From: Vulcanimicrobiota bacterium
GTDB lineage: Bacteria; Vulcanimicrobiota; Xenobia; Xenobiales; JADMJV01
Reading direction: 5' to 3'
Length of the DNA stretch: 40,731 nt
NCBI GenBank assembly: GCA_022842865.1
Contig: JALHOV010000004.1
Span: forward strand, 1 to 40,731
Shown: positions 1 through 9,237 of the stretch, in pieces
Position numbering within the stretch: the first letter of the stretch is position 1
Layout of the letters: each line of letters starts with the position of its first letter
Position numbers and translations under genes: made by a program
Notes under the pieces: model-generated
Told to the model about the DNA's origin: nothing
The model's input: only the letters and a program-made list of their open reading frames with translations
Database searches by the model: none

Positions 1-250
1 TGTAACCCCGCCGCTCGGCCTCAACGACACCAAAGACTGAGCGAATCTGACGGCTTCGCACCCGGCCGCGCTCAAGCGTGAGAACATTTCCTTCTTTCTG
101 GACATCCAACTTTGGCCGCAGCTGGGGACAGCAGGCTACGGCCCAGGCCTGGTTTTGGACATCCCGCCTATTTTTTCTTCTCCCTGCGAAACCTTAGTCG
201 GACCGGCCGGTTAAATCGGACCTATTAGAAAACTGGGGAGGAACAAACCC

Positions 251-1066
251 ATGAATCAAGCGATAAGCGGTCTTCTACTGGTCGCGGCTTTGGCCGGCAC
301 GCTCACCGAAATTGCGGAGGCCCGCGGCGGCCGCGCAGGCGGAGGTAGAGCAAGAGCAAACTCGGGCAGCTTTCAGCGACAGGGCACTCGCACGGGCGCC
401 CAAGGGAACACCAGCACTCACGCTGGTCAAGGCACCTGGAGCCGCGGCAACGGCAGCTACGCCAGAAACTATGATGGCACGCGTACCGGTCCCAACGGCC
501 AGAGCCAGCAGGTCAATCGCAATCAGAACGTGACCAAAACGGGCGACAACAGCTATCAGCGGGACGGCTCTCACACCGTAACCGGCGCCAACGGAGAGTC
601 GCGCACCCGGACTACGTCCGGACAGGGAACTGTGCAAAAAACCGACAGCGGATACACCAAGAGTTATGACGGAACCATCACCACCGACAAAGGCAAAGTG
701 ATCAATGTGGACCGTAGCACCGAGGCGACACGCAACGCCGACGGCACGGTCAGCAAAGACCGTTCGGTGGAATACACCGACTCCAGTGGAAACGCCTTGG
801 GGACGGGTCAATCGAACTCCGTGCGCACCCCGGGTCAAGGCACCACCACCACCGGTAGCTACACCAACGCCAAGAACGGCAACACTTCTACCTACCAGGG
901 GTCGACTACGCCCAGCGGCGAGGGAGGCTATGGCCATACAAGCACCTGGACAGGTGCCCAGGGGAACAGCCGAACCACCAATGCAAACGCACGTTGGCAG
1001 TATATAGACGGCAAATGGGTAAAATCGGTGCAAAGCACCACCGCCCCTGTTACACCCGCGCCTTAA
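251..1066 (+). CDS. Secreted low-complexity Thr/Gly/Asn/Gln-rich protein, paralog A of 8323..9237
   Basis: 271-aa ORF with a GGGGAGG Shine-Dalgarno-like motif upstream of the ATG. Has an N-terminal hydrophobic signal-like segment (LLLVAALAGTLTEIAEA). Shares the C-terminal block NARWQYIDGKWVK and the internal TRTPGQGT block with 8323..9237. Confidence 0.7.
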   Translation: MNQAISGLLLVAALAGTLTEIAEARGGRAGGGRARANSGSFQRQGTRTGAQGNTSTHAGQGTWSRGNGSYARNYDGTRTGPNGQSQQVNRNQNVTKTGDNSYQRDGSHTVTGANGESRTRTTSGQGTVQKTDSGYTKSYDGTITTDKGKVINVDRSTEATRNADGTVSKDRSVEYTDSSGNALGTGQSNSVRTPGQGTTTTGSYTNAKNGNTSTYQGSTTPSGEGGYGHTSTWTGAQGNSRTTNANARWQYIDGKWVKSVQSTTAPVTPAP

Positions 1067-1310
1067 GCCCTGGGAGCTCAACTCCGTCGAGTGCTGGATG
1101 ATGTCTGTTGGGCAGCCTGCAGTCCGAAACCGAGACGCAGATGGTGATCCCGGCCTGGCCCGCGCCGACTTTCAGGGCCCGGGGCCGATGCCTTGATCGC
1201 CGCTCGGAAGGCCTTCGGATCAGCTTCCCTACGACCTCGAGGCCGCAGGCGAAAGGCTTTTTGGAACCCCCCAGGGAAATCGGCTTCGTGAGCATCCGAC
1301 CCCTTCTTCG

Positions 1311-3107
1311 ATGACTCTGAAACCCAAAGAGTTAGAGCAACAGGTCCGTCAGGTCTTGGACAGCCGCTCGTCCGATCGCGACTGCCTGACTGCTCTGGAG
1401 ACCGGACCCGCCAGTCATTTCGGCTTTCCCGGCCTGACCTGGTTGTGGGGGCCGGAGCTTTACCAACGCGACCGGGTCCTTTTTCGTGCTCTACTGCTGG
1501 CCAAGTTTTCCCACCAAACCTGGGCGGGCGGCTGGCGCTGGAGCAATACTCCCTGGTCGGCTCGCTTGCAAAGCTGGTTGGAGCAAGCCGACCAGGATCA
1601 GGACGTCGAGTTATGCCAGCGCCTGATCACCTGGAAGTTGCTGGCCCAGGCCGGGTTCACTTACTCCAAACTGTCACCACTGGTCCGTGCGGAACTGCTA
1701 CGCCGCACCAAGCACAAACCAACTAGCGCCCAACGTCGTCTGGAGGAGCGCAAGCTCGATTTCTGGTTCCAGCTCGACCACATCACCGCCCTGCAACTCT
1801 ATCGCCAGGACCCGGCATGCTCGGCCTACCTTTTGCGGCACCTGCCCCGCCCGGAGAAAGTGTTCTGGAAAGAGCTTTTTCAGCTGGCGCTGGGCCAGGA
1901 CGAAGCGTTCGCCTACAAAATCTACCGTGCCTTGATTCCCTTGTCGCAGTGGGAATCGGAGGTGAAAGAGCTGTGCCGGTCTCCCTTGAAGGCCTCAGAG
2001 CTCCTCAAGGAACTGGAGCGCCGCTCACCAACCTACGGCTACGGGGAGGCCTTTGCCAGGGTTCTCTACCAGATTTTGCAGGAGCGCGGCCGGGACGCTT
2101 TTGCCTATGTCATCCCCCAGCTCAAACGAGTCTGGAAGCCGCTGCTGGGCCGCGGAAACTATGGCAAGATGCTGGAGTTGGCCGACGCCAAGGGTTGGGA
2201 TGACCTGTGGTGCGCCATTCTGCGCACCTGCGCGTCTTCTAAGGAGTTTAACACCAGCCTGCGCAAACTGGCGGCCCAACCGGGCAGCCCCAGGCTGCCT
2301 GGCCTGAGCGGCGTTTCCAGCGAATGGAACTTTGGCGCGGTGGGTCTGGCCCGCGTGCAGATTCTGGACAACGACACCGCCCTGGCGCTCTACAGGGCCA
2401 ATCCGGATTGGTTAAGGGGCCCCTTCAAACTGAACCTGCAGGTGCACCCGTCGCAAAAAGGCTACACCGGCTTGCTGCAACAGCTGATGGACCGGGGGGA
2501 AGAGGAACTGGTCGACCTGCTGGCCAGCCGCTACATCCTCAGTTATCAACCTCTTCCCGAAGTCCAACTGTTGACCGATTACTACGCTGCTCTGGGCGAT
2601 TCGCGCGCCCGCCGCGGGGCCAACGTGCTGGGCAAGCTGCCCGCCTATTGCATCTGGAACTATCCCGAACTGATCCGTAAGAACCGGCTGGCACGCGCCC
2701 TCTACGAACGCTCCATAGCCGACTATGCCCAGGACCCGCTGGCCTTGTCGGACCTGGTGGAAGCTTCGGAAATACACGTCATGGCGCTGGGTTACCGGGC
2801 CCTGAGCCAGGCCGCCCCGGACGAGGCGGCGCGCCATCTGGTGCTGCTGCTGGGCTGCCTGTTTCGGCCTATGCAGCGCCTCACCCGCGGCTACGCTCTG
2901 GCCGCCCTGGAGCGGGCCTCCCAGACCAACCAGGGAACGGCCGCGCGCATCCTGGCGGCCGCTCGCGAAGCCCAGCGCCTGCCAGATGAGCGTTACCCGA
3001 AAGAAGCCCTACTCTCCCTGCTGGGTTCTTTGCTGAATCGCTGGCCCGAGCTACGTGGTCCCCGAGAACAACCGGTGGTTTACCGCCGCGAGGTCAGTCG
3101 TGTTTAG
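1311..3107 (+). CDS. Hypothetical 598-aa protein, apparently all-alpha/helical-repeat, with no catalytic motif recognised
   Basis: Long ORF with non-repetitive, protein-like composition. Its stop codon (3105-3107) overlaps the GTG (3100) of the next gene, which suggests translational coupling. Confidence 0.65.
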   Translation: MTLKPKELEQQVRQVLDSRSSDRDCLTALETGPASHFGFPGLTWLWGPELYQRDRVLFRALLLAKFSHQTWAGGWRWSNTPWSARLQSWLEQADQDQDVELCQRLITWKLLAQAGFTYSKLSPLVRAELLRRTKHKPTSAQRRLEERKLDFWFQLDHITALQLYRQDPACSAYLLRHLPRPEKVFWKELFQLALGQDEAFAYKIYRALIPLSQWESEVKELCRSPLKASELLKELERRSPTYGYGEAFARVLYQILQERGRDAFAYVIPQLKRVWKPLLGRGNYGKMLELADAKGWDDLWCAILRTCASSKEFNTSLRKLAAQPGSPRLPGLSGVSSEWNFGAVGLARVQILDNDTALALYRANPDWLRGPFKLNLQVHPSQKGYTGLLQQLMDRGEEELVDLLASRYILSYQPLPEVQLLTDYYAALGDSRARRGANVLGKLPAYCIWNYPELIRKNRLARALYERSIADYAQDPLALSDLVEASEIHVMALGYRALSQAAPDEAARHLVLLLGCLFRPMQRLTRGYALAALERASQTNQGTAARILAAAREAQRLPDERYPKEALLSLLGSLLNRWPELRGPREQPVVYRREVSRV

Positions 3108-4575
3108 TTATGCCACCCCCAGCCTCTTCCAAAGCGACCTGAACCAGGCCCGCCTGGGCCTGTGTTGCGACCAGGACCGTCCGGTCGAATGGGAAGCTCG
3201 CCTGATCGAGCACATCCCCCTGGTACGCTTCGCTCTGCGCGCCCTGGGCGAACTGATCTGGTCCGGCGACGAAGACGGTCGCGCCCGACTGGATCCCATC
3301 CTTACGGCTCACCCCGATGGTTTGCTGGCCGAAGCCTTCTCCTCCGATCTGGCCGCCTATGGCCGCCTGTGGCTGAGTCCGCAACTTTACGAAGTGCGCG
3401 GCACCCCGCTGTGGGGTACTACCAACGTCGATTTTTCGAGCTGGCTGTGGGGCGCACTGGGCGAGATGCGCAGCAGTCGGGAAACCTGGCTGCGCCTGAA
3501 TCCTCAGGGGTTTGCTTTGGAGACCCTGGGCGCGGGCGGGCGCTTCCAACCCAAAGTAGACATCCCCAACGATTGGTTCCGTGCTTTCCTGGAGTTGCAG
3601 GGAGCTCTGACCCGCCCCTGCACCAGGCTACGCGTCCCCCCGATGGATTTGTTGGCCCCGATTCGCTTCCTACGCCACTCCAAAGGTCGCCTGAGCCCAC
3701 GTGCGCTCCGCTATGAGTGCCATCCAGAGGGCTGGAGCATCGTGCTGGAGCCTTGGGAAAAGCGCTTTGCCCTGCGCGCCGACCAGGGCGGCGAGCCGCG
3801 AATCCTGCGCACCTGGGGGCGTCAGAGGCTGCGCCTGATCGAGCCCCTGCTGCCCTTCGCCGAATCGGTAGAAATCCGCCTGCTGGGCCGCGCCATGCCT
3901 CACTTTTATCGAGTTCAGCTGCCGGGGATGAGCTTTCTGTTGGGGCTGACCGGCTGGGGGCGGCAGAGCTTTGCGGCCGAATCCGGCTACTCGCTGTTGC
4001 GCGGGCTGCCGCAGGCACAGTCTGAAGAGGCCCTGTCCACTCGCGAGCATGAGCTGCGCCAGAAGCTGCTCTCCCCCTACCACCCGCTCGATGAGGAATT
4101 GGTGCGACGCGGACTGGCCCTTACCGATTTAGATCGAGGCCAGACCCGCTATCGTCCGCTCACCCTCCAGCCGCTGGATCCCAAGGTCCTCTATCCCCCT
4201 GACCTGAGGGCCGAGGAAGCAGCCACTCTAAAAGCCTCGGTGCAGGCCTGCTGGGTCCAGGAACAGCGCAAGCTCAAGAGTCTGATCACGCCCCAGGGCA
4301 AGGTCCAGCGAGAGCTGATCTTTCGCGACTGGAAAATACAGGGCGAGTGCCAGGGCCACCCTCTCGAACTGGTGGTCAGCGAGCGCGAGCAAATCCTCTT
4401 TGGGCGCTGCGACTGCGCCTTTTTCCAGAAGCATTTGCTCAGCCAGGGACCGTGCTCGCATCTGCTGGCGCTCTTCGAATCCAGCCGAGATTTGCGCGCT
4501 CAGAACCTGCCCAGCTCGCTGGAGGTCCGAGAGGTCCCGTCGCGGCAGGAAGTAGGCGAAGATGGCGAAGAGTAG
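3100..4575 (+). CDS. SWIM zinc-finger domain protein (C-terminal SWIM, N-terminal region unknown)
   Basis: The C-x-C-x12-C-x-H signature (CDCAFFQKHLLSQGPCSH) is encoded at 4408..4461. I chose the GTG at 3100, preceded by GAGG at 6-nt spacing, over the ORF-track start at 3055, which overlaps the upstream gene by 53 nt. Confidence 0.8.
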   Translation: MFSYATPSLFQSDLNQARLGLCCDQDRPVEWEARLIEHIPLVRFALRALGELIWSGDEDGRARLDPILTAHPDGLLAEAFSSDLAAYGRLWLSPQLYEVRGTPLWGTTNVDFSSWLWGALGEMRSSRETWLRLNPQGFALETLGAGGRFQPKVDIPNDWFRAFLELQGALTRPCTRLRVPPMDLLAPIRFLRHSKGRLSPRALRYECHPEGWSIVLEPWEKRFALRADQGGEPRILRTWGRQRLRLIEPLLPFAESVEIRLLGRAMPHFYRVQLPGMSFLLGLTGWGRQSFAAESGYSLLRGLPQAQSEEALSTREHELRQKLLSPYHPLDEELVRRGLALTDLDRGQTRYRPLTLQPLDPKVLYPPDLRAEEAATLKASVQACWVQEQRKLKSLITPQGKVQRELIFRDWKIQGECQGHPLELVVSEREQILFGRCDCAFFQKHLLSQGPCSHLLALFESSRDLRAQNLPSSLEVREVPSRQEVGEDGEE

Positions 4576-4579
4576 CCGG

Positions 4580-4594
4580 GCCTCAAGGAAAGTG
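4580..4594 (+). repeat. Left arm of a long-range inverted repeat (candidate retron a1)
   Basis: GCCTCAAGGAAAGTG is complementary to 4723..4737 (CACTTTCCCTGAGGC) at 14 of 15 positions, with one A-C mismatch. Two further G-U pairs are possible outside the arms. Confidence 0.6.
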
Positions 4595-4722
4595 TGCACC
4601 AAAGTTAGCCGTTTATGCTGCGGTGTTTCGCCGCAGCGGCGAATTGTCGCCATAACACCGCCAAGGTCCCCATCGTACGCAACGAAGGGGAGCCCTGAGT
4701 CCAGAGCCTCGTTAGTAACGGC

Positions 4723-4737
4723 CACTTTCCCTGAGGC
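4723..4737 (+). repeat. Right arm of the long-range inverted repeat (candidate retron a2)
   Basis: Complement of 4580..4594. Contains the GAGG (4733-4736) that sits 7 nt upstream of the RT ATG. Confidence 0.6.
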
Positions 4738-4743
4738 TTTGTT

Positions 4744-5985
4744 ATGAGTCTGTGGGATTGGATAAAACAGAAGCTGCTGGGTATCCCACCGCAGCGCGAC
4801 ACCTCTCGTCTGGAACCGGACCGAGAAGGCGTGTCCGAAAAAGTAGACGTGAGTGGCGCCCCACTCAAACCATCGCATCGCCGTCGCGCTCTGCGCGACC
4901 GGCGCCTGCTGCCCAAAGCCCGAGCTCCCGTCGGCAAGCGGCCCCAGGTGATGTCGCTGGCGGAAGCGGAGCGCCTCTTTTCAGCCAGTCAGCGCAGTCG
5001 CAATCGCCGGCAGCGCGATCTGCTGGCCGATCCCGAACAATTGCAACGTTTGGGCCTGCCGCTTTGGTCACGCGAAGATCAAGTGGCCGCCGCGCTGGGC
5101 CTGACTCTGCCCCAACTCTGGCACTTTGCCATGCATCGCCAGGGCGAGGCCCATCCTCACTATGTGGCTTTCGCAGTTCCCAAGCGTAGCGGGGGGGACC
5201 GGATCATTCTCGCTCCCAAGCGCCGCCTGAAGGCAATGCAGCGCAAGTTGCTGCAAATGCTGGCCGAAAAACTTCCGGTTAGCCAGGCCGCCCACGGCTT
5301 TCGCAGCGGTCACAGCACGCTCACCAACGCCCTCCCCCATTTGAAGCAAAAAGTAGTCCTTCGATTCGACCTGAAAGACTTCTTCCCCAGCTGCAACTGG
5401 GCGCGCGTGCGTGGACTGCTGATCGCCTACGGTTACAGCTTCCCGGTGGCCACCACCCTGGCCCTGCTGATGACCGAAGCGGAACGACAACCGGTGGAAA
5501 CTCCCGACGGCCTGGTCTTTGTTCCGGTGCGCACGCGCTACTGTGTGCAAGGAGCCCCGACCAGCCCGGCCCTGGCCAATGCGCTGACCCTGAAATTGGA
5601 CCGCCGCCTGCTGGGGTTGGCGCGCAAATTGGGCTGGCAGTATACGCGTTACGCCGATGACCTCACCTTCTCCGGCCAGACACCTGAACAGGTCGGCCTG
5701 CTGAAAAAAGCCGTCGAAGGTATCGTGGAAAGCGAAGGCTTCGCCCTGAATGGCGCCAAAACGAAAGTCATGCGCAGTGGACGCTGCCAGAGCGTAACGG
5801 GAGTGGTGGTCAACCAGGTGGCCGGCCTCTCCCGTCAGGAACGCCGCCGCCTGCGGGCCGCCCTGCACCAGGCCGGTGGCCAACCCGATGCCCAGCTGAG
5901 CGGCAAACTGGCTTATCTCCAGGGACTCAACCGCGGGCAAGCAGAAAGACTGCGGCGGCCCCGCGGAGGCCAGGTTCTGGACTGA
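4744..5985 (+). CDS. Retron-type reverse transcriptase with a basic N-terminal extension of about 100 aa
   Basis: RT motifs are present in order: KRSGGDRIILAP, HGFRSGHS, RFDLKDFFPS, QGAPTSPALAN, YTRYADDLTF (YADD at 5650..5661) and NGAKTKV. The retron-typical SVTGVVVN (VTG at 5794..5802) follows. An alternative internal start exists at the ATG at 4951. Confidence 0.9.
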   Translation: MSLWDWIKQKLLGIPPQRDTSRLEPDREGVSEKVDVSGAPLKPSHRRRALRDRRLLPKARAPVGKRPQVMSLAEAERLFSASQRSRNRRQRDLLADPEQLQRLGLPLWSREDQVAAALGLTLPQLWHFAMHRQGEAHPHYVAFAVPKRSGGDRIILAPKRRLKAMQRKLLQMLAEKLPVSQAAHGFRSGHSTLTNALPHLKQKVVLRFDLKDFFPSCNWARVRGLLIAYGYSFPVATTLALLMTEAERQPVETPDGLVFVPVRTRYCVQGAPTSPALANALTLKLDRRLLGLARKLGWQYTRYADDLTFSGQTPEQVGLLKKAVEGIVESEGFALNGAKTKVMRSGRCQSVTGVVVNQVAGLSRQERRRLRAALHQAGGQPDAQLSGKLAYLQGLNRGQAERLRRPRGGQVLD

Positions 5986-6026
5986 CGGATCCCGAACTCT
6001 CGTCCCCAAATCACGCAGGAGGCAAG

Positions 6027-7436
6027 ATGAGCAAGCGGTTGGGATGGTGGAGCGGGTTTCTCTTGGCCTGCCAGTTGAGCGGTTGCGGAGTCTCCTCTCA
6101 GACCAACCCGGTGCCCCCTCCCGCCTCCCCTCCCCCTGGTTGGAATTGGCTGGCCCAGACGCGTTGGGCGGTGCCGCCTCAGGACTTGCGCGCCTACCTG
6201 CTGCGCCAGGGCACTTCCGAGCCAATTCCCCTGACGGAACAGATGGTGTTGCAGATTGAGCGTGTCGAGGACGGCCTGTTAACCGGCCAGGCTCGTGTGC
6301 AAACCTCCATCCCCACGCCCCTGTCGGACGGAGCAGTCACCTCCGCCGACCTGGCGGGCAGCATGACCCCGGAAGGACGGCTGGATCTTTCTCTGACCAA
6401 CCCAGATGGCCGGAGGACCCGTATCTCCGGCGCACTCTTGCAGACCTCCTCGGGCTGGAAGTTACAGATCCAGAGTGTCGCCGGGTCGACGGACCGCCTG
6501 GTTCAAAACGCCGGCCTCGTCTTACTGGCAGCCGATCAGACTGCCGCCGAATTGACTGAAACCTCGAAAGAATCCGAGCCAGACCCTTGGAGCTGGCTGC
6601 CCGGGACTTCCTGGTACGTGCCAGTAGACTATCTGTTGGCCTATGTCGTCGGCCCCCCTGGACGGGCGCCTTTGCCCATTAGCGATCAAACCCTCTACAC
6701 TCTCCAGGGCTATGACCACGGTTATTTCTGGGGACCGACCACCACCACCATGACCCCCGACAGCGGAGTGGGCAAGTTCGGAACGCGCAGCAGTCACCTG
6801 AATCTGCTGGGCTGCGTCAGTCCTCAGGGATCCATCTTGCTCTCCTTCAGCCCCTCCGACCCCGACAACCCGGCCATCACAGGCTATGGGGTGATGCAGA
6901 GACTGGACGGCGAGTGGACCATGGAAAATCAGATGGCCTCCGAGAGCGCCGTCACCGTGACTCACTGGGCCTACATGAAACAGGTCTTTCCAGGCGTCGT
7001 TCCCAGTCCGCCACTGCCCGTGAACGAACTTCCCGGGCAATTGGCCGCTACCCAACGTTGGGCTTTCCTGAAAAACTCCAGCTGGCAAAACAGCTCCGCC
7101 ACCCAAAAAGGCTTACTCTCCAACGGCTTCGCCAGCCATCCGGCAACCGTCCTGGAGGAAGTGACCTATGCCATCCGAGACTTCCGCAGCGGATACTTTA
7201 GCGGGACCACCCGACTGCGCCTCCAAGGTCAGACGGAAGATTTCAACTTGGCCGGCAGCGTCACTCCCGAGGGAGCTCTTTACCTGTTTTTCATCCCCAC
7301 TTCCGCAGCCGGCGCCACCAGTACGGTCGGGCTCGGTTCCATGCGGGCCATTCCGAATGGCTATACCATGCAAACGCAAACCCTCAGTCCTGGCGAGGTC
7401 CAACTCGTTCACTGGTCGGACATGCTGCGCAACTGA
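6027..7436 (+). CDS. Lipoprotein with three tandem divergent domains of about 140 aa
   Basis: AGGAGG lies 4 nt upstream of the ATG. Signal sequence with lipobox LSGC. Each third of the protein repeats the pattern W-x-W-L..W.VP...L.AY and G(S/C)(M/V)(T/S)P(E/Q)G.L.L(S/F). Confidence 0.75.
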   Translation: MSKRLGWWSGFLLACQLSGCGVSSQTNPVPPPASPPPGWNWLAQTRWAVPPQDLRAYLLRQGTSEPIPLTEQMVLQIERVEDGLLTGQARVQTSIPTPLSDGAVTSADLAGSMTPEGRLDLSLTNPDGRRTRISGALLQTSSGWKLQIQSVAGSTDRLVQNAGLVLLAADQTAAELTETSKESEPDPWSWLPGTSWYVPVDYLLAYVVGPPGRAPLPISDQTLYTLQGYDHGYFWGPTTTTMTPDSGVGKFGTRSSHLNLLGCVSPQGSILLSFSPSDPDNPAITGYGVMQRLDGEWTMENQMASESAVTVTHWAYMKQVFPGVVPSPPLPVNELPGQLAATQRWAFLKNSSWQNSSATQKGLLSNGFASHPATVLEEVTYAIRDFRSGYFSGTTRLRLQGQTEDFNLAGSVTPEGALYLFFIPTSAAGATSTVGLGSMRAIPNGYTMQTQTLSPGEVQLVHWSDMLRN

Positions 7437-7466
7437 CCGTCCCACTTTACAACAGGGCCTGAGCCT

Positions 7467-8240
7467 ATGTCCTGCGAAACCTCCGACATGACCTTACGCG
7501 CCCCACAACCAGGCAAGCGCCCGCTTCGCGATAGTGACATCCTCCCATATGACGATGGAGTCCCCATGGAAACGACCCAGCATCGGATTCAGATGAATCT
7601 TCTCATTGAAACCCTGCAGACTTATCTGCGCAAACGGGAGATTAACGCCTACGTGGCCGGCAATAACTTTCTCTACTATCAGAAAGGAAAACCGCCCAAG
7701 TTTTGCGGTCCCGACTTTTATGTGGTGCTGGGTCGCCAGGAAACAGACCAGAAATCCTATGTGGTCTGGGAGGAAGACAACCGCTTTCCGGACGTGATTG
7801 TGGAACTCTTGTCGGCCACCACCGAGGCGACCGACCGGGGAGCTAAATTCATTCGCTATCGCGACCTGTTTCGCACCCCGGAGTACTACCTCTATGACCC
7901 CATCAGTCAGGTTTTCGAAGGCTACCGGCTCACAGAGGGACAGTATGTGGCCATTGCGCCCTCACGGAAATCACTGGCTTGTAAATCCCTGGGGCTGAGT
8001 CTGGCGGTGCGGGGCAAATGGCTACGCTGGCTAGACTCGGATGGAGTCGTATTGCTAACCGGAGAGGAACTAGCCGAGCAGGAGCGCGAGCGAGCCGAGC
8101 AGGAGCGGGAGCGAGCCGAGCAGGAGCGCGAGCGAGCCGAGCAGGAGCGCGGGCGAGCCGAGTATGAGCGCGGGCGAGCCGAGCGGCTAGAAGCCGAGTT
8201 GGCCAGACTGCGTGCTCTTCTGCCCCCGGAACTCGCCTGA
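7467..8240 (+). CDS. Uma2-family (DUF820) restriction-endonuclease-like protein with a C-terminal charged heptad-repeat tail
   Basis: Shows a typical Uma2-like pattern: PYDDGVPMETTQH, GPDFYVV, PDVIVELLS, then YRDLFRTPEYYLYDP. The start is uncertain (ATG 7467 or ATG 7488). Confidence 0.75.
   Translation: MSCETSDMTLRAPQPGKRPLRDSDILPYDDGVPMETTQHRIQMNLLIETLQTYLRKREINAYVAGNNFLYYQKGKPPKFCGPDFYVVLGRQETDQKSYVVWEEDNRFPDVIVELLSATTEATDRGAKFIRYRDLFRTPEYYLYDPISQVFEGYRLTEGQYVAIAPSRKSLACKSLGLSLAVRGKWLRWLDSDGVVLLTGEELAEQERERAEQERERAEQERERAEQERGRAEYERGRAERLEAELARLRALLPPELA
8073..8186. repeat. Tandem 21-bp in-frame repeat, about 5.4 copies, encoding AEQERER heptads
   Basis: GCCGAGCAGGAGCGCGAGCGA repeats at 8073, 8094, 8115, 8136 and 8157 with 0-4 substitutions each, plus a partial copy from 8178. 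Confidence 0.9.
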
Positions 8241-8322
8241 AGTTTTTTTAGCAAGACCGCAACCCGAGACCGTTCTATCGGTTCTATGCACCATCTGACG
8301 GGTTGAGCAAAGAGGAGGTTTT

Positions 8323-9237
8323 ATGAAAAATTCGAGCACTGTGGCCGGAGCGTTAATGCTTGCCGGGGTCCTGCTTCTGTCTCCGGTGGCTGAGGCACAG
8401 GGCCGGGGGGGCACCCGGCAGGGAACTTCCACCGGCACTCGAGGAAACAGGAGCTACCAGGGCACTCGCACCGGCACCGGAGGCCAGACTTCCACCGTCA
8501 ACCGAACCAATCAGGTGAATCGGACCGGGGAGAACACCTGGCACCGCGACACCAACCAGACGGTCACTCAACCCAACGGAAAGACGCGCTCCTGGCAGGC
8601 CAGCGGCGATGGCAGCGTCAACAAGACCGAAAATGGAGCCAATCGCCAGTACAACGGCACCATCACCAACGACAAAGGGCAGTCGGCCACGGTCAATAAG
8701 TCGGCGGACGTGACCCGGAGCGGCGATGGAACAGTCACCCGCGACAAACAATCCACCATCACCGGCCCGAACGGACAGACGACCACCAGGGAGAGCACGC
8801 ACACCGCCACCAAGAATGAGGATGGCAGTGTCACCCGCACCATCGACTCCACTTCAACAGGTCCCAATGGCCAGAGTGTCAACCGTGACGGAACCAGCAC
8901 GACGGTAAAGAATGAGGACGGCACCTATACCACCGATCGGCAATCCACGGTGACCAATGGACAGGGGGACGTCATGGGAACCGGCCAATCGACCACCACG
9001 CGAACCCCGGGCCAGGGCACCCAGACCAGCGGAAACTATACCAATTCGCAAGGCAACACCTGGCAATACGAGGGCTCTACCACTCACCCCGAGCCCGGAA
9101 CGACCCAATATTCGGGAAGTGTAACCAATCCCAACGGAGCCACTGGCACCCGCACTAGCAACGCCCGTTGGCAGTATATCGACGGCAAATGGGTCAAGAC
9201 CGTAGAGGGTTCAGCGACAAGCACCTCCGCCCCCTGA
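8323..9237 (+). CDS. Secreted low-complexity Thr/Gly/Asn/Gln-rich protein, paralog B of 251..1066
   Basis: AGAGGAGG lies upstream of the ATG. Signal-like N-terminus ending in the probable cleavage motif AEA-QG. Same architecture and conserved C-terminal NARWQYIDGKWVK as 251..1066. Confidence 0.75.
   Translation: MKNSSTVAGALMLAGVLLLSPVAEAQGRGGTRQGTSTGTRGNRSYQGTRTGTGGQTSTVNRTNQVNRTGENTWHRDTNQTVTQPNGKTRSWQASGDGSVNKTENGANRQYNGTITNDKGQSATVNKSADVTRSGDGTVTRDKQSTITGPNGQTTTRESTHTATKNEDGSVTRTIDSTSTGPNGQSVNRDGTSTTVKNEDGTYTTDRQSTVTNGQGDVMGTGQSTTTRTPGQGTQTSGNYTNSQGNTWQYEGSTTHPEPGTTQYSGSVTNPNGATGTRTSNARWQYIDGKWVKTVEGSATSTSAP

Follow-up and report, generated by a model that had tools for sequence, protein, structure and literature searches.

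A stretch of 40,731 nucleotides (nt) from contig JALHOV010000004.1 of a Vulcanimicrobiota bacterium (positions 1 to 40,731, forward strand), here called the window, carries two overlapping genes directly upstream of a noncoding RNA (ncRNA) and a reverse transcriptase (RT), which raises the question of whether the gene pair belongs to a retron and, if so, what its two proteins would do there. The first open reading frame, ORF1 (1311-3107, + strand), runs from an ATG to a TAG stop at 3105-3107 and encodes 598 amino acids (aa); the second, ORF2 (3100-4575, + strand), opens with a GTG and encodes a 491-aa protein with a SWIM zinc finger. A sequence-only reading of the window had proposed that the pair is the accessory or effector module of the adjacent retron and, further, that no SWIM partner had been described for retrons. 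The first proposal is borne out by the conserved linkage described below. The second was mistaken, as Mestre et al. 2020 define type XIII retrons by just such a partner and the PADLOC resource models it. From comparison of sequences and predicted folds, we conclude that the two genes almost certainly encode the accessory proteins of a retron of type XIII.

The gene pair as an almost certain type XIII accessory module

Type XIII retrons were described by Mestre et al. 2020 (NAR 48:12632; PMC7736814) as RT clade 10, with validated members from Myxococcus, Stigmatella and Nannocystis (Retron-Mxa1/Mx162, Mxa2/Mx65, Sau1/Sa163 and Nex2/Ne144). In that study the linked protein of the type bears a DEDE motif and, besides a winged helix, a SWIM finger of spacing CxCx12CxH at its C-terminus, and in many cases a HEAT/ARM-repeat protein precedes it. 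PADLOC carries the models SWIM_XIII, HEAT-ARM_XIII, WGR_XIII and RT_XIII. The ORF2 protein matches SWIM_XIII at 1.3e-96, covering aa 70-475 of a longer, 506-aa form that is discussed below, and the window RT (4744-5985, + strand; 413 aa) matches RT_XIII at 5.8e-122 with 406 bits, the best among 68 RT models, the next being RT_other with 298 bits. These matches, together with a gene order, a SWIM spacing, a winged helix and a HEAT/ARM-like partner that all fit the published description, argue for the type XIII identity.

The window thus shares with known type XIII retrons the order helical-repeat protein, SWIM protein, ncRNA and RT, the CxCx12CxH finger with a winged helix upstream of it and the first four positions of the acidic motif, an RT whose best model is RT_XIII, and an ncRNA with a1/a2 arms directly upstream of the RT. 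It differs in that ORF1 matches none of the three PADLOC accessory models of the type, in that the ncRNA model built here reaches at most 30 bits on canonical type XIII loci, and in that the acidic motif of ORF2 ends with Q.

Conserved linkage of the cassette across genomes

An alignment of 34 ORF1 homologues, used as a query, recovered 75 genome loci from at least six phyla, among them Verrucomicrobiota, Planctomycetota, Alphaproteobacteria, Myxococcota, Eremiobacterota-like lineages and Acidobacteriota. Of these loci, 58 have at least 3.3 kilobases (kb) of sequence downstream of ORF1, the other 17 stopping at a contig edge, and in every scorable locus (58/58) a SWIM homologue and then an RT follow on the same strand. 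Metagenome loci anchored on the RT were divided into close loci, with an RT identity of at least 51%, and distant type XIII loci, with 39-50%. Both ORF1 and SWIM homologues lie upstream in all close-RT loci with enough sequence (6/6), whereas the distant type XIII RTs are accompanied by a SWIM homologue in 22/29 loci and by an ORF1 homologue in 0/29. The sequence-only reading had suggested checking whether homologues of both proteins co-occur with this RT clade and had held that pairs found mostly without an adjacent RT, and RTs found without the pair, would speak against a retron role. Co-occurrence is complete when loci are anchored on ORF1 or on close RTs; the contrary pattern applies only to distant relatives, namely SWIM_XIII-like proteins paired with DUF6493 proteins without an RT.

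The scores of the ncRNA covariance model described below follow the RT/ORF1 grouping, which argues that RT subclade, ncRNA type and ORF1 family co-vary. The cassette is a coherent sub-lineage in which an RT with a conserved N-terminal extension, one ncRNA type and the ORF1 solenoid family go together, and ORF1, ORF2, the ncRNA and the RT are expressed together as a four-part cassette.

The same array is found in Myxococcus hansupus (CP012109), where A176_001523 and the two genes downstream encode proteins of 621 aa and 530 aa and, after a 165-nt gap, a 428-aa RT. The 621-aa protein is 37% identical to ORF1 over 98% of its length, the 530-aa SWIM homologue is 44% identical to ORF2 and overlaps the ORF1 homologue by 4 nt, the spacer matches the ncRNA model at 131 bits, and the RT is 54% identical to that of the window. 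The M. hansupus locus differs in its phylum-level host, in its flanking genes and in a SWIM protein with E at position 150. The Mx65 RT is 427 aa long; this sub-lineage would then probably be of the Mx65 type, which is a lead only. Among the other loci, one (L062, 13271-15508) has about 2.2 kb inserted between the SWIM gene and the RT, with the ncRNA motif beside the RT, and two (L038 and L040) have RT matches that are short or truncated only.

Gene boundaries, ncRNA and RT

ORF1 and ORF2 overlap by 8 nt, with the TAG of ORF1 lying inside ORF2. A mechanical call opens ORF2 earlier, at an alternative GTG at 3055 (3055-4575; 506 aa). The GTG at 3100 is favoured, because the nearest ORF2 homologues are 481-491 aa long at a coverage of 100% and independent gene calls in four other assemblies of the same sequence place the ORF2 start 8 nt before the ORF1 stop; a GAGG at 3090-3093 also precedes this in-frame GTG. 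The stop/start overlap is not due to chance: among the 47 related loci that could be scored validly, 41 have overlapping ORF1 and SWIM genes, and in 39 of these the overlap measures 4 nt. The boundaries first proposed from the bare sequence, a 598-aa ORF1 whose stop at 3105-3107 runs past a GTG at 3100 and a second protein of about 490 aa, are exact, and so is the position given for the SWIM finger. The ORF2 stop at 4575 and the first ncRNA arm from 4580, on the same strand as the RT, likewise agree with a pair that ends 4 nt before the ncRNA. A scan of 900-8400 for sigma-70 promoters and terminators gave nothing above chance that would mark operon boundaries.

The 168-nt spacer between ORF2 and the RT contains the retron ncRNA (msr-msd; 4580-4737, + strand), which is supported by its arms, covariation and a covariance model and within which we infer the msr and msd limits. 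Its 15-nt arms, a1 (4580-4594) and a2 (4723-4737), form an inverted repeat of 93% complementarity; these coordinates come from a direct repeat search and not from the MAFFT alignment, in which the window arms lie one column off. The stem is extended by pairing of 4604-4607 with 4716-4719, and hairpins are located at 4617-4637, 4665-4694 and 4696-4711. An invariant AGC follows the stem extension, H2, where we infer the candidate G4608 to be the branching G. The spacer folds with a minimum free energy of -74.6 kcal/mol (z = -5.98). In a 37-sequence alignment the consensus comprises 41 pairs, and compensatory changes are seen at 24 of them, the 14 pairs that make up the a1/a2 stem among these. 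Of the alignment cells, 93% are paired, compared with 37-52% when the partners are slid, and the observed value was reached by 0/500 shuffles.

The covariance model built here (R1) scores 148 bits on the window, which is part of its training set, and recovers the full-length ncRNA at 115-163 bits in held-out close-RT loci, including M. hansupus and two loci that lack a SWIM gene. It reaches 56 bits on a locus with a long form of ORF1 and at most 30 bits on canonical distant loci, finds no match in RT-less SWIM and DUF6493 loci, and thus fits one type XIII sub-lineage only. No Rfam family matched positions 1-9000 at E up to 1. The window has what is generally expected of a retron: beside the RT lies a structured ncRNA with a1/a2 inverted repeats, and a conserved G marks the end of its stem. 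A 2026 preprint, citing Mestre 2020, states that the type XIII msr-msd "has not yet been identified"; in Mestre 2020 (PMC7736814) itself, an ncRNA structure distinct to type XIII is described.

The RT itself matches RVT_1 at 4e-20 and retron RTs in the PDB, such as Ec86, at 1e-33. Its N-terminal extension of about 95 aa (4744-5030, residues 1-95) is conserved in the ORF1-linked subclade only; alignments with distant type XIII RTs do not begin before about residue 92. The extension has many invariant basic residues (R18, R47, R51, R54, K58 and others) and may be where the solenoid docks.

A predicted clamp-like fold, a winged helix and a SWIM finger in ORF2

The SWIM finger of ORF2 (4408-4461, + strand; C437, C439, C452, H454) reads CDCAFFQKHLLSQGPCSH (aa 437-454) and is the only Pfam match of the protein (E = 4e-5, above the gathering score). 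Conservation was scored in 120 homologues and 8 outgroups, the latter comprising canonical, Clostridium, Myxococcus and long-form-linked proteins and three RT-less ones. The zinc ligands are conserved in 128/128 of these sequences, RT-less proteins included. The finger had been called the only recognisable element of ORF2, which is correct for Pfam and does not hold once the PADLOC SWIM_XIII match and the fold prediction are considered. Upstream of the finger lies a winged helix-turn-helix (4012-4164, + strand; about aa 305-355), which in the AlphaFold2 (AF2) model consists of helices at 309-322 and 331-336 and strands at 340-343 and 348-351 and is followed by a β-hairpin/SWIM module. The ORF2 family profile gives a weak MarR/AdcR match (E = 0.04), and HTH_11, HTH_24, IclR and TrmB each match 3-4 family members; PDB searches with the single sequence and with the profile gave either nothing or only a weak match of this winged-helix kind.

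Fold searches, which had been suggested as a check on both proteins, were run and point to a HEAT/ARM-like solenoid for ORF1 and a clamp-like fold for ORF2. For the N-terminal ~260 residues of ORF2 the prediction is a two-domain PCNA/sliding-clamp fold (3181-3969, + strand; about aa 28-290, limits approximate) and not a transposase fold. The AF2 model (predicted local distance difference test score, pLDDT, of 77; predicted template modelling score of 0.75) was compared with the PDB by Foldseek, where the top 50 matches were all PCNA, archaeal PCNA or 9-1-1 clamps with E values of 1e-9 to 5e-8. The clamp matches have target-normalised template modelling (TM) scores of 0.58-0.74 over ~280 columns, and 478 matches fall below 1e-3. 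In a library of viral structures, 49 of the top 50 were viral PCNAs, phage beta-clamps or unnamed proteins.

The modelled region superposes on a whole PCNA protomer, and helices of the clamp-like domain carry invariant arginines, nine arginines being invariant among the 120 homologues and mostly placed on predicted helices. By contrast with PCNA, 9-1-1 and beta-clamps, ORF2 continues after the fold with a winged helix and the SWIM finger and has an invariant set of acidic residues that clamps lack, and in structural alignments the identity is 10-15%, with no Pfam or PDB profile match. No clamp family appeared when the ORF2 family profile was searched against the PDB, or when 34 ORF2 homologues were scanned permissively against Pfam, with E up to 10 allowed in both cases. 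As the sequence profiles show only the winged helix and the SWIM finger, the clamp fold is a prediction at the level of structure only. An AAA+ clamp-loader gene is absent from the cassette. The model suggests a resemblance of ORF2 to sliding clamps only, and not membership among them.

A different hypothesis, that of Mestre and colleagues, sees in the SWIM protein a DEDE (IS256/Mutator-like) transposase that has been domesticated and whose nuclease activity would be the toxic output of the retron. Their central motif, Dx7[D]x4Ex30-32Dx37E (PMC7736814), compares with D65-x7-D73-x4-E78-x32-D111-x38-Q150 in the window, where the first four positions are present and the last is Q at a spacing of 38 instead of 37. 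At least 119 of the 120 homologues, and all 8 outgroups, keep D65, E78 and D111. At position 73 every one of the 120 homologues has D, and the outgroups have D, E or H. Position 150 holds E in 104 of the 120 homologues, Q in 15, the window protein among them, and A in one; all 8 outgroups, RT-less proteins included, have E there. Judged from this conservation, the acidic motif is real and old.

These ancient acidic residues, retained in RT-less proteins and fitting the published spacing within one residue, favour a transposase origin, as does the SWIM finger that ORF2 shares with MuDR transposases (Makarova 2002, cited in Mestre 2020). The family nevertheless parts from IS256/Mutator elements in its predicted fold, which is not RNase-H-like, and in the fixed operon with an RT (58/58 loci). 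The region that bears the acidic residues is predicted to be PCNA-like in two independent structure libraries, neither library has an RNase-H-like or transposase structure in its top 50, the acidic residues are spaced unlike those of classical DDE triads, and the last acidic position varies among E, Q and A. The published RNase-H-like origin is thus unsupported by the predicted fold, and we regard it as rather unlikely. ORF2 may still be a metal-dependent nuclease on a non-RNase-H fold.

Genomic setting

The cassette might also be a domesticated, vertically inherited cellular function in DNA metabolism or regulation and not an anti-phage system. Its surroundings in the window include genes for an NDH-2, PelF/PelG, a KaiC-like ATPase and a response regulator, which is a housekeeping neighbourhood. 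ORF2 homologues are absent from 50,697 phage records, and matches on plasmids are nearly all on non-mobilizable megaplasmids. Mestre 2020 (PMC7736814) reported a moderate correlation (0.78) of type XIII with host 16S and suggested domestication, and no published defence phenotype for the type was found. Against this stand the patchy spread of the cassette over the six groups named above, the finding that none of the genes flanking it in the window recurs beside 155 related loci, a putative Uma2-family restriction endonuclease gene (7467-8240; PF05685, 3.5e-20) 1.5 kb downstream of the RT, and the literature, in which all retron types tested so far are defensive. We consider a purely domesticated role unlikely; a defensive role and a domesticated role are both possible.

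The Uma2 gene is the only defence-like gene near the retron, and the C-terminal tail of its product contains several ERERAEQ-type heptad repeats. At 251-1066 and 8323-9237 lie genes for paralogous secreted proteins rich in S, T, G and N (36% identity, E = 8e-43), both ending in ...ARWQYIDGKWVK.... These paralogues bracket a 7.25-kb block composed of the retron cassette, a gene for a 469-aa putative lipoprotein (6027-7436) and the Uma2 gene. The block may have been inserted between two genes that stood in tandem.

Cassette variants and RT-less pairs

Two metagenome loci, L089 (52-3309) and L092 (56-2344), combine an ORF1 homologue, a full-length ncRNA (123-126 bits) and an RT without a SWIM gene; L089 has only a 102-aa open reading frame in the SWIM position. 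In a third locus, L165 (7001-14084), three unrelated genes lie between a long ORF1 homologue of 1133 aa and the SWIM gene; a weak ncRNA-like match of 37 bits follows, and there is no RT. It looks like a decaying or rearranged cassette.

The SWIM and solenoid pair also exists as an RT-independent module. On megaplasmids of Diaphorobacter, Streptomyces and Asticcacaulis (L161, 5752-12085; L162, 5776-9836; L167, 5785-10073), a SWIM_XIII-like protein (~1e-51) is followed, with a 4-nt gene overlap, by one or two HEAT-repeat proteins of the DUF6493/DUF7824/DUF7825 families, and no RT lies within 6 kb. An integrase gene, toxin-antitoxin genes (VapC/Phd) and methylases are among the neighbours of these pairs. 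Clostridium butyricum and Methylobacterium carry the retron form. The RT-less SWIM proteins are homologous to ORF2 over nearly the whole length and keep D65, E78, D111, E150 and the zinc ligands, and their partners are likewise large HEAT-repeat proteins encoded in an overlapping gene. They differ from the window in having neither RT nor ncRNA, in the reversed order, with the SWIM gene first, and in partners of 790-980 aa that are unrelated in sequence to ORF1. Literature searches on DUF6493, or on SWIM and HEAT proteins in anti-phage defence, returned nothing relevant.

Such pairs in three genera, and the L165 locus, could be taken to mean that the window pair is an autonomous SWIM and HEAT-repeat system that needs no RT, with the adjacent retron as a later add-on or a mere neighbour. 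In this family, however, linkage to the RT is absolute (58/58 and 6/6), the ncRNA begins 4 nt after the ORF2 stop, and ORF1 family, ncRNA type and RT subclade co-vary, whereas the RT-less partners are not detectably related to ORF1 and their gene order is reversed. We therefore consider autonomy very unlikely for the window pair. Its linkage, its co-variation and the reversed RT-less order agree with a history in which a retron took up an older module that then came to depend on the RT.

ORF1 as a distinct solenoid family

ORF1 has no match in Pfam, NCBIfam or PADLOC, in keeping with its first description as a protein without recognisable motif, and PDB searches with the single sequence and with a profile found nothing. 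The AF2 model is nearly all helical (pLDDT 91.8), and its top Foldseek matches in the PDB are all HEAT/ARM solenoids (E 4e-4 to 6e-3), including SF3B1, designed armadillo proteins, karyopherins, PP2A-A and CAND1. ORF1 is thus a HEAT/ARM-like partner of the type XIII kind at the level of the fold and not at that of sequence models. Neither ORF1 nor its Myxococcus homologue matches the PADLOC models HEAT-ARM_XIII or WGR_XIII, whereas a canonical protein in locus L104 matches HEAT-ARM_XIII at 8e-178. Comparison of the ORF1 family with a canonical HEAT-ARM_XIII protein by hhalign gave a probability of 0.2%, that is, no similarity, and comparison with two DUF6493 proteins gave none either.

An exhaustive profile search places 423 representative clusters in the ORF1 family, Myxococcus included, and the family is confined to one RT/ncRNA subclade to which the Myxococcus locus also belongs. 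It includes long forms of 940-1130 aa, in which the C-terminal half is ORF1-like and which also precede SWIM and RT genes. The idea that these long relatives are WGR_XIII proteins was rejected, as they have no PADLOC or Pfam match. Judged from the model, ORF1 is a distinct alpha-solenoid family filling the HEAT/ARM slot of type XIII; it may correspond to one of the minor clusters of Mestre 2020 (216_2, 3262_1, 259_1, 1688_1). That the SWIM protein and its helical partner form a previously undescribed effector, and hence a new retron type, is suggested by the missing ORF1 matches to Pfam, NCBIfam, PADLOC and a canonical HEAT-ARM_XIII profile but is refuted, to the point of being extremely improbable, by the SWIM_XIII (1e-96) and RT_XIII (6e-122) matches and by Mestre 2020 (PMC7736814), who already describe this architecture as type XIII, and a Myxococcus locus carries the same ORF1 family, Myxococcus retrons being founding members of the type.

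A tentative mechanism

We propose the following scheme, whose steps as a set we hold tentatively, at somewhat short of an even chance. The RT would reverse-transcribe part of the ncRNA into a short multicopy single-stranded DNA (msDNA), primed from G4608. The ORF1 solenoid would serve as a lineage-matched adaptor that binds the RT-msDNA particle and tethers ORF2, which would be a generic nucleic-acid-handling component. As in retrons whose mechanism is known, the RT-msDNA complex would sense a perturbation, probably one inflicted by phage, and control when ORF2 acts on DNA, which ORF2 may encircle, block or cut. Taken together, the type XIII identity and this mechanism appear quite probable to us, a judgement that applies mainly to the identity.

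An adaptor role for ORF1 is suggested by its restriction to the close RT subclade (6/6 versus 0/29) while SWIM homologues accompany both close and distant RTs (6/6 and 22/29), and by the two loci that keep ORF1, ncRNA and RT without SWIM. Mestre 2020 (PMC7736814) further reports co-evolution of the RT with the HEAT/ARM protein and not with the SWIM protein, which also supports this role. For ORF2, the predicted clamp-like double domain with its invariant arginines and the conserved acidic residues D65, E78 and D111, the winged helix and the SWIM finger are the parts that would handle nucleic acid, and they point to such a role.

Several observations weigh against this interpretation. The clamp fold comes from one AF2 model with patches of pLDDT 52-73 inside the domain, and the PDB profile and Pfam scans lend it no support at the sequence level. 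For ORF1, the Foldseek statistics behind the solenoid call are weak (E ~1e-3, TM 0.15-0.3), as is to be expected for flexible solenoids. ORF2 has no recognisable toxic enzymatic domain, and its residue 150 in the window (3547-3549) is Q where most homologues have E; if this residue is catalytic, the window copy may be inactive or altered. The neighbourhood is ordinary chromosomal DNA and not a defence island, and the anti-phage function of type XIII is assumed from analogy with other retrons. Literature searches found no experiment on any type XIII accessory protein, and searches on retrons with clamps or PCNA and on type XIII function gave nothing relevant.

Implications for type XIII retrons

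The system is already catalogued, as type XIII was defined in 2020 and is modelled in PADLOC, and the window locus is a rediscovery. What is new is the clamp-like fold prediction for ORF2, the similar gene pairs without an RT and a sub-lineage solenoid that existing models miss. PADLOC misses the solenoid partner of a whole sub-lineage, all 423 representative clusters with Myxococcus among them, and annotation pipelines will therefore call these systems incomplete.

More speculatively, at appreciably less than an even chance, the SWIM_XIII proteins and their RT-less relatives may be an unrecognised family of clamp-fold DNA-handling proteins with an acidic, possibly catalytic, cluster, each with a large solenoid partner, and not transposase relics. 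Type XIII would then be the msDNA-controlled version of an older, RT-independent two-gene system, in which the solenoid is an exchangeable adaptor that matches the module to an RT/ncRNA lineage. Type XIII contains the first retrons ever found, those of Myxococcus, and neither mechanism nor phenotype of its accessory proteins was found in the literature searched. The clamp-like fold prediction provides a testable lead in place of the published transposase guess, and the RT-less SWIM and HEAT pairs provide a second one, since comparison with them could show what the retron contributes.

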